A stretch of 25,956 nucleotides of DNA, from NCBI RefSeq assembly GCF_003334785.1, contig NZ_QOWV01000029.1; one strand, 5' to 3'. Position numbers and translations under genes: made by a program. The number at the start of each line of letters is the position of its first letter. Position 1 is the stretch's first letter. Shown in pieces: positions 22,747 to 23,235 of the stretch. The notes beneath the pieces were generated by a model, which worked only from the letters and a program-made list of their open reading frames with translations, was not told the origin of the DNA and searched no databases. The stretch comes from Escherichia coli. Its GTDB lineage: Bacteria > Pseudomonadota > Gammaproteobacteria > Enterobacterales > Enterobacteriaceae.

Positions 22747-23235
22747 TTAATGCATAATTACCCGTGATTCTTTCCTGGTAACGTAGGTACAGTTATCCGG
22801 AACCTCCTCCATAATAAAAGACATGGCTCCAATTTTTACATTACTGCCTATTTTTACGTTAAGCCCGATAATACACGTATGGGCACCTACATCGACATTA
22901 TCACCAATAACGATATAATTATCTCTGCTGTCAGATTCCTTTTCGCCAATGGTCGTGTTCTGCCGAATAATCACATTCTCACCGATCTTTACATTACCGT
23001 GAATGACGACACCTGAATGGTGGGGCAGCACGAGGCCTTTACCAATCTGCGCCCCCAGGCCAATATCACATCCATACTTTGCCATAAGCGCATTTTTTAT
23101 CTTGATCGCACATTTTCGTTGTTTTTTATTCCCCGATATATACATTTCATTAGCCAGACGCCACCACAGAAGAAAACCTCTCTGCCTCTGCATACCGTTC
23201 CTGATAAGCCGGTGAAAAACAAACTTATCCCGCAT
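22747..23235 (-). CDS. Hexapeptide-repeat (LbH) acetyltransferase, serine acetyltransferase/WcaB-like, 162 aa
   Basis: DIGLGAQIGKGLVLPHHSGVVIHGNVKIGENVIIRQNTTIGEK hexapeptide pattern. Start chosen at ATG 23235 to give WcaB-like length and alignment; upstream in-frame starts at 23334 and 23397 are possible. AT-rich. Confidence 0.65.
   Translation of the reverse strand: MRDKFVFHRLIRNGMQRQRGFLLWWRLANEMYISGNKKQRKCAIKIKNALMAKYGCDIGLGAQIGKGLVLPHHSGVVIHGNVKIGENVIIRQNTTIGEKESDSRDNYIVIGDNVDVGAHTCIIGLNVKIGSNVKIGAMSFIMEEVPDNCTYVTRKESRVIMH

Follow-up and report, generated by a model that had tools for sequence, protein, structure and literature searches.

What does an acetyltransferase gene that stands alone on an Escherichia coli plasmid acetylate? 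The gene in question lies in a 25,956-nucleotide stretch of E. coli DNA (NCBI RefSeq assembly GCF_003334785.1, contig NZ_QOWV01000029.1), which we refer to in its entirety as the window, and it encodes a hexapeptide-repeat protein of the left-handed β-helix (LbH) type. An initial annotation, made from the window sequence without database searches, described an orphan gene that resembled those for WcaB and serine acetyltransferase (SAT). The results presented here indicated that the gene was intact and real and that it belonged to a narrow clade carried mainly by mobile elements, namely, I-complex and IncF-type plasmids and P2-like, P1-like, and other tailed prophages. Comparisons of sequence and gene context suggested that the product could be a cytoplasmic O-acetyltransferase of lipopolysaccharide (LPS) or another envelope sugar, which would alter a surface receptor; we assigned this proposal a rough probability of 0.4.

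An open reading frame (ORF) spanned positions 22747..23397 on the minus strand, with its TAA stop codon at 22747-22749. The initial annotation, which had placed the gene at 22747-23235, was right about the stop but not about the start. Position 23235 corresponded to Met34 of the acetyltransferase, and a start at this position would cut the N-terminal helical domain. Because the 33 residues ahead of Met34 contained helices and a WKxEVI motif that were conserved in homologs at 40-65% identity (family alignments), and because the ATG at 23334 was kept in three other plasmid alleles in a DNA alignment (pCT, pSCU-115-1, and an IncK2/Z variant that was only 82% identical), we assigned the start to this ATG, which was located 99 bp further upstream. 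The Prokaryotic Genome Annotation Pipeline (PGAP) used the same coordinates on an identical plasmid (22747-23334), and the 195-amino-acid product was named "serine acetyltransferase" (WP_087896601.1).

Compared with its counterparts on pSCU-115-1 and other plasmids, the window protein had 3 to 5 residue differences (97.4-98.5% protein identity), and every residue that was invariant in the family alignment was present. An AlphaFold2 model, which was generated from a 70-sequence family alignment and assigned secondary structure via DSSP, was confident over the whole chain, with a predicted local distance difference test (pLDDT) value of 95.4. The initial annotation had named firm placement as a truncated fragment of a larger gene as the result that would overturn it. 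This possibility was ruled out by the family length (about 180 to 200 amino acids), which the window protein reached in full, by the N-terminal conservation, and by the AlphaFold2 model. Phase variation via the A8 tract at 23273-23280 was also rejected; the tract was not conserved, since pCT and pSCU-115-1 have A7 at this place and p5312.29 has an interrupted tract.

A Pfam Hexapep match (3.4e-05) and further repeats placed the protein in the LbH superfamily. In the AlphaFold2 model, residues 88-185 formed regular short strands with pLDDT values above 90, and the family alignment contained conserved N-terminal domain columns at L24, E31, W57, R59, and A61. All of the top PDB fold matches were CysE-type SATs, with template modeling (TM) scores of about 0.7 and identities of 22-28%. 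Asp90 (codon 23065-23067) and His105 (codon 23020-23022) aligned with the CysE catalytic pair Asp143/His158, and His105 was nearly invariant across the 70 family members. Based on the N-terminal helices, the SAT fold matches, and the His105/Asp90 pair, the protein was placed in the CysE-like (SAT-fold) subfamily. By homology, it is predicted to depend on acetyl-CoA and to form a trimer with active sites between the subunits.

Thus, the description of the product as a WcaB- or SAT-like LbH enzyme was borne out at the level of the fold, and no curated NCBIfam cutoff was reached. Specifically, the window protein scored 86.7 bits against EpsC (NF041874, cutoff of 150), 77.7 bits against CysE (TIGR01172, cutoff of 210.65), 61.7 bits against PRK11132 (cutoff of 397), and 58.7 bits against WcaB (TIGR04016, cutoff of 194.65). 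As judged by these scores, the protein is related to EpsC, CysE, and WcaB and is an equivalog of none of them. The WcaF/WbbJ/LacA/Maa-type models gave E values of 2.5e-06 to 3.8e-05 (about 23-27 bits), which did not place the protein among their members, and the NeuD family model gave 42 bits. No model of the xenobiotic (Vat/CatB) class was found among the NCBIfam hits listed. The match to PHROG 2154 was full length (E value of 1.2e-63), with residues 19-193 aligned on profile positions 4-179 of 185.

We compared the active site of the window protein with those of K-12 CysE and WcaB (from NC_000913.3), using a Clostridium EpsC-type SAT as a control. In E. coli CysE, Asp92, Asp157, Arg192, and His193 bind serine/cysteine (PMC9547175). 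The corresponding positions in the window protein were Q, P, N, and Y, respectively, and they were variable across the family. All four residues were present in K-12 CysE and in the EpsC-type control, and all four were lost in WcaB. The window protein also had no GDRHP loop and no C-terminal tail like the Ile-ending tail of CysE. Because all four serine-binding residues were lost, databases that call the protein a "serine acetyltransferase" probably misstate its substrate. Hence, the caution of the initial annotation, which had called the substrate unknown and suggested a surface structure or a small molecule, proved appropriate.

The database name nevertheless represents an alternative that had to be weighed: a short, genuine serine O-acetyltransferase that serves as an auxiliary metabolic gene and raises the O-acetylserine/cysteine supply, or induces the CysB regulon, in carriers. 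The naming itself, the best NCBIfam and PDB matches (EpsC/CysE), and the conserved catalytic His/Asp pair are all consistent with such an enzyme. However, the loss of the serine-binding residues and their lack of conservation in the family, the absence of the loop and tail, the scores well short of the CysE and EpsC cutoffs, the separate clade described below, and the lack of cys genes nearby in any context examined make this alternative highly improbable.

The initial annotation had proposed phylogenetic placement among LbH acetyltransferases as a check. A neighbor-joining tree was built from 98 sequences and 171 columns, and it included family members, the nearest LbH proteins outside the family, and K-12 CysE, WcaB, WcaF, and WbbJ. 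The family was monophyletic in this tree (bootstrap value of 92/100) and stood apart from the CysE/EpsC clade and from WcaB, with WcaF and WbbJ as distant outgroups; the EpsC-type sequences P0108 and P0109 fell in a clade separate from that of the window protein. A plasmid branch, which consisted of copies that were 93-98% identical and were located on I-complex and IncF plasmids, was the sister group of an enterobacterial phage branch. The clade corresponds to PHROG 2154.

When 1.84 billion representative proteins were searched with a profile, only 71 matched at an E value of 1e-30 or less, compared with 7,729 at 1e-10 or less for the wider SAT-like group. In one-genome-per-species data, full-length members were found in Enterobacterales, Orbaceae, and Pseudomonas only, and the protein database added a further full-length member, encoded in a metagenome-assembled genome of Lentisphaeraceae. 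Four proteins of 594-944 amino acids (P0121, P0141, P0142, and P0157) matched the family profile in 3 to 6 separate stretches; these proteins could be tandem fusions or miscalled genes.

The relatives at 40-60% identity were phage cargo genes, and their positions shared a theme. A P2-like prophage paralog (about 52% identical) was located between gpU and the tail fiber assembly gene (tfa), the P1-like phage copy was located between two tail fiber cassettes and beside the cin invertase gene, and the copy in Citrobacter phiNP adjoined tfa. The Buttiauxella and Xenorhabdus copies were at the ends of tail modules, and another copy was in a tail fiber island beside copA. Of 5,426 complete E. coli genomes, 530 contained the P2/P1-type paralog, O157:H7 and O104:H4 strains among them.

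To quantify this linkage, we used 80 IMG/VR loci encoding relatives, of which 68 were usable (i.e., had at least 700 bp of DNA downstream). A convergent tfa gene was found 19-72 bp downstream of the acetyltransferase gene in 57 of the 68 loci. Most of these 57 represented one P2-like lineage; the tail-to-tail arrangement nevertheless occurred in at least 10 phage lineages. Identities of Tfa to the references ranged from 22% to 100% across these loci. In several loci that lacked a convergent tfa gene, tail fiber genes were located directly upstream or slightly further downstream. In addition, a 1.8-kb block that contained about the last 600 bp of the tail fiber gene, tfa, and the acetyltransferase gene was 93% identical in a P2-like prophage and the P1-like phage JL22, and the flanks were unrelated. 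Therefore, the fiber tip, tfa, and the acetyltransferase gene travel as one cassette, which points to modular exchange of host range cassettes across phage types.

Two further observations were made at these loci. In the P2-like prophage (L003, 1008-9195), the sheath-to-gpU block was on the strand opposite gpD and the fiber genes, a layout that we take to be an inversion relative to the canonical P2 map. In Salmonella (L011, 11333-11959), a different hexapeptide protein of 208 amino acids was encoded 4 kb from a family member and near MazE-PIN/TacA-type toxin-antitoxin genes and an integrase gene.

The chromosomal relatives provided a second line of evidence about the acceptor. The neighbors of 21 genome loci were annotated by NCBIfam and PHROG scans of flanking ORFs; tblastn of the same neighbors against a small reference set yielded few identifications. 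In P. mendocina, the family member was located within an LPS core cluster, and its start codon overlapped the stop codon of a GT2 gene. The gene order was GT4, three kinase genes of the 3-deoxy-D-manno-octulosonic acid (Kdo)/WaaP type, a carbamoyltransferase gene, GT2, the acetyltransferase gene, further genes, and msbA. The metagenomic relative was flanked by genes for a WaaP-like kinase, an MsbA-like transporter, and a nonulosonic acid pathway, and the P. neustonica member was located between a GT4 glycosyltransferase gene and the gene for the pseudaminic acid synthase PseI. A Photorhabdus prophage copy had a tail collar fiber gene on one side and, on the other, a same-strand gene for a WaaZ-like Kdo transferase, and a Rosenbergiella copy adjoined, and was divergent from, a gene for an OafA-like acyltransferase. 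Thus, embedding in glycan clusters was observed for the Pseudomonas-type members and, in part, for Photorhabdus, but not for the window gene or most enterobacterial copies. In a Pseudomonas sp. (locus L116, 5986-8839), a family member was directly upstream of a SLATT-domain gene and a gene for the antiviral reverse transcriptase Drt3a, in a defense island context.

How might such an enzyme act? The acceptor would be a hydroxyl group on a sugar of some envelope glycan precursor rather than serine. The likeliest target would be the LPS core, or another lipid- or nucleotide-linked sugar, and the acetyl group would be added on the cytoplasmic side prior to export; the LPS core is the most plausible of these because the chromosomal relatives sit in LPS core clusters. 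The fibers of P1, P2, and Mu-type phages and the PilV adhesins of IncI-complex plasmids recognize the LPS core. An enzyme made from a resident plasmid or prophage could decorate the surface and change its recognition by LPS-binding ligands, such as the I-complex PilV adhesins or tail fibers like those encoded beside the phage copies. Lysogenic or plasmid conversion would follow, or else exclusion through receptor masking.

Several points weigh against this proposal. Targeted literature searches identified no characterized family member, and PHROG 2154 is annotated as "unknown function"; the sole literature mention found was a table entry ("serine acetyltransferase, fitness") for ORF4 of Citrobacter phiNP. 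The linkage to tail fibers may be positional rather than functional, since the region downstream of fiber genes is a general hot spot for phage cargo. The plasmid copy had no glycosyltransferase or tail fiber neighbor, most Enterobacterales chromosomal copies were solitary between unrelated housekeeping genes, and the members in glycan clusters shared only about 40-49% identity with the plasmid protein. To our knowledge, O-acetylation of the E. coli LPS core is not an established modification. Finally, the window gene had a 38-bp deletion and an insertion sequence (IS) upstream, and its expression was only presumed.

A broader version of the envelope sugar proposal is that the gene is a receptor-masking module shared by phages and I-complex plasmids and that it travels with the ligand it guards against. 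In phages, it would be carried with the fiber tip and chaperone, and in I-complex plasmids, it would be carried in the backbone of conjugative elements whose PilV adhesins likewise recognize the LPS core. Acetylation of one LPS core sugar would guard against superinfection, futile mating, or progeny being lost on cell debris, and it would constitute an unrecognized LPS modification in about one-sixth of E. coli genomes. We consider this version doubtful.

The main rival to an envelope sugar is an acceptor that is not a glycan, in which case the enzyme might act in antiphage defense or counterdefense or might detoxify a small molecule such as an antibiotic, a bacteriocin, or a signaling nucleotide, and such a role would account for its place in the accessory regions of mobile elements. 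In keeping with this idea, the family was almost exclusively mobile element cargo, its neighbors frequently included toxin-antitoxin genes (yacAB or relE/phd on plasmids, hicAB in phiNP, and MazE-PIN and TacA in Salmonella), and one Pseudomonas copy was beside the SLATT and Drt3a defense genes. Moreover, the slot that the family member occupies in P2-like prophages, between the tail fiber assembly and tail genes, is one that we take to be where P2 carries its lysogenic conversion gene Z/fun, a gene that blocks T5. However, the PADLOC-DB 2.0 defense models returned 0 families for the window protein and two phage paralogs, the NCBIfam hits listed contained no Vat/CatB class, and the members inside LPS core and glycan clusters would be left unexplained. 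A link to ColIb abortive infection of T5/BF23, which the T5-blocking Z/fun gene had made attractive, also failed and was ruled out, since ColIb-P9 lacks the acetyltransferase gene. The R64-type IbfA is an ATPase-TOPRIM protein (PMC12111858). We also rejected a connection to the P2 defense hot spot of Rousset et al. (2022); judging from its passages on the old and tin genes, the hot spot appeared to be the old/tin locus, not the slot adjacent to the tail fiber genes, and the word "acetyltransferase" is absent from the paper. Taken together, these findings led us to regard a nonglycan acceptor as somewhat unlikely.

The acetyltransferase gene is commonly carried by IncK/B/O/Z-type plasmids. In PLSDB, 326 plasmids contained the window allele or a close variant, and 261 of these plasmids were conjugative; 295 were from Escherichia, and the others were from Shigella, Salmonella, Klebsiella, and Citrobacter. 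The gene was intact in about 240 plasmids, and truncated copies (54% of the gene covered) were located on many large plasmids. Among the 5,426 complete E. coli genomes, 336 (6%) contained the plasmid-type gene, which was nearly always plasmid borne. The conserved order on plasmids was repA, yacAB or relE/phd, the acetyltransferase gene (alone or accompanied by a small hypothetical gene), the ProQ/FinO gene, yagA or parA, and impCAB. This repA-to-impCAB neighborhood was shared by the IncK plasmid pCT, an IncK2/Z plasmid, an O55:H7 plasmid, and the IncF plasmid pSCU-115-1. In ColIb-P9, the slot between repA-yacAB and the ProQ/FinO gene contained an exonuclease gene and hypothetical genes and no acetyltransferase gene, and a DUF4238 gene was located elsewhere. 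The cargo slot is thus variable because ColIb-P9 carries other cargo there. The label "orphan" was accurate for the window, but it missed that solitary cargo is the rule for the family and that the phage copies are linked to tail fibers.

The window was 100% identical to the E. coli plasmid pWP7-S17-ESBL-04_2, which carries an IncFII-type repA gene and IncI1-type nikAB genes. The features of the locus are listed in Table 1.

Table 1. Coordinates of the acetyltransferase gene, its domains, and associated features (window positions unless a locus is named)
Feature	Position	Strand	Description
LbH acetyltransferase coding sequence	22747..23334	-	195 amino acids plus stop; SAT fold, PHROG 2154 clade; RefSeq WP_087896601.1
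N-terminal α-helical domain	23074..23334	-	Residues 1-87; five helices (residues 6-87); motifs WKxEVI and FxWWRLANE
Left-handed β-helix domain	22750..23073	-	Residues 88-195; motifs IRQNTTIG, IGDNVxIGA, and IGxNVKIGAMSF
Upstream noncoding region of acetyltransferase gene	23335..23634	-	Plasmid backbone remnant, presumed promoter region
ISEc22, IS66-family element	23635..25956	-	Inserted upstream of acetyltransferase gene
ISEc22 terminal inverted repeat	23635-23650		Reverse complement GTAAGCGTGCAGCAAG
ISEc22 transposase ORF	23672-25210		
ISEc22 tnpB ORF	25259-25606		
ISEc22 further upstream ORF	25603-25839		
ProQ/FinO-family RNA chaperone gene	21832..22467	+	Convergent neighbor; "frameshifted" near 5' end (PGAP); weak ProQ/FinO hits
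Shared 1.8-kb cassette	L003 8009-9808 and L009 5012-6811		P2-like prophage (L003) versus P1-like JL22 (L009)

What the initial annotation had said of the surroundings was upheld in three respects. The gene was in an AT-rich block, with guanine-plus-cytosine (GC) contents of 0.41 and 0.38 over 22501-23500 versus 0.53-0.62 within the IS. It was beside an IS66-family element, since the terminal inverted repeat of ISEc22 ended at 23635, 300 bp upstream of the start. It also had no neighbors for polysaccharide or cysteine biosynthesis in the window, where it was flanked by the frameshifted ProQ/FinO-family gene and the IS. In pSCU-115-1 and pCT, no element interrupted the site at which ISEc22 was inserted. 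Just past ISEc22, at the right end of the window, was a second IS66-family element, ISCro1.

The ProQ/FinO-family gene was intact in pCT and pSCU-115-1 and was a conserved partner of the acetyltransferase gene in I-complex plasmids. Its orientation relative to the acetyltransferase gene differed between the IncK and IncK2/Z plasmids. An operon of the two genes was excluded, since they were convergent in pCT and codirectional in p5312.29.

About 65 bp upstream of the ATG, the window lacked 38 bp that were found in pCT and pSCU-115-1 (TCTCTGCTTTTTCATxGCTACTGTCATATTTATGTCAG; DNA alignment columns 769-806), and the junction was at 23397/23398. This loss may alter the promoter of the acetyltransferase gene. 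The proximal 60 bp before the ATG, including a TAAAAT element, were conserved with pCT and pSCU-115-1. A promoter/terminator consensus scan around the gene on the coding strand detected none above chance. Because of the IS66-family element 300 bp upstream, the 38-bp deletion, and the lack of a promoter above chance, expression of the gene from this plasmid may be poor.

The same features, together with the frameshift in the adjacent ProQ/FinO gene and the truncated copies on many large plasmids, are what would be expected if, in this plasmid, the gene were at present a functionless passenger that is silent or in decay. However, the reading frame was intact and only 3 to 5 residues removed from other copies, all of the invariant residues and the proximal 60 bp with the TAAAAT element were retained, and about 240 plasmids carried an intact gene. 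We therefore considered a passenger distinctly unlikely.

Several other features of the window were observed. Another low-GC block (0.36-0.38), next to an IS110 element, contained a 314-amino-acid hypothetical ORF at 19058-20002 (minus strand) that had no match in NCBIfam or PADLOC. Two abutting ORFs at 20362-20700 and 20700-21290 (plus strand; 112 and 196 amino acids, with a GC content of 63% in 20501-21000) were conserved as a pair in pSCU-115-1 and had no family match. A pair that resembled these ORFs in size and arrangement was present in ColIb-P9 (L186, 11026-11873). At about 8000-13000 in the window (L001, 5602-10735), an impB/umuC-type polymerase gene was split by IS1203 and the IS66-family element ISEc47.

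The work adds a correction of the start codon, the finding that the serine pocket was lost, a delimited narrow mobile element clade, a quantified linkage to tail fiber and tfa genes, and relatives in LPS core clusters. Plasmid-type and P2/P1-type genes are both routinely annotated as encoding a cysteine biosynthesis enzyme, and the active site contradicts this annotation. If LPS or receptor modification proved true, then phage host range, the design of phage therapy, and phage typing would be affected, as would recipient choice by the IncK/IncI plasmids that spread extended-spectrum β-lactamase genes. The gene would also represent an enzyme-based addition to the small set of receptor-blocking genes beside receptor-binding protein genes. 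If the acceptor were something else, then this would be a single-gene cargo family that is amenable to simple experiments.

In comparison with known systems, the gene is not new to the databases, where its name is misleading; the enzyme is of a known kind, and its clade has no characterized member in the literature searched. The window protein is a direct member of PHROG 2154, which has no functional annotation. Like CysE and EpsC (TIGR01172 and NF041874), it has a helical N-terminal domain followed by an LbH domain, a TM score of about 0.7, and the equivalents of His158 and Asp143. Unlike these enzymes, with which it shares 22-28% identity, it lacks Asp92, Asp157, Arg192, His193, and the Ile-ending tail, has a shorter N-terminal domain, and belongs to a separate clade.

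Two phage systems provide functional parallels. NeuO, an LbH O-acetyltransferase encoded by prophage CUS-3, modifies the K1 polysialic acid capsule and is phase variable via a 5' heptanucleotide repeat. The likeness would lie in function rather than sequence, in a soluble prophage hexapeptide acetyltransferase that mediates lysogenic conversion by decorating a surface glycan in the cytoplasm. In contrast to neuO, the window gene has no 5' heptanucleotide repeat, and no NeuO/NeuD-type model scored well. Cor (phages of the φ80/N15/HK022 type) and Llp (T5) are small envelope proteins that directly block FhuA. The analogy with these proteins would be functional, in that a gene beside the receptor-binding module would act on the receptor that the fiber uses, but the window protein is a predicted cytoplasmic enzyme, and its effect on a receptor is proposed only.

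The remaining comparison is with WcaB (TIGR04016/PRK10191). The window protein differs from WcaB in its score (58.7 bits against a cutoff of 194.65), in its clade, and in its longer N-terminal helical domain (about 87 residues), which has its own motifs. In addition, the family is plasmid or phage borne and was never found in a colanic acid cluster, and no wca genes were near the window gene. Nevertheless, both are short CysE-like LbH enzymes with a catalytic His and a preceding acidic residue and without the CysE serine-binding residues, and WcaB, as annotated, is a cytoplasmic colanic acid O-acetyltransferase that acts on a sugar of a lipid-linked repeat unit.

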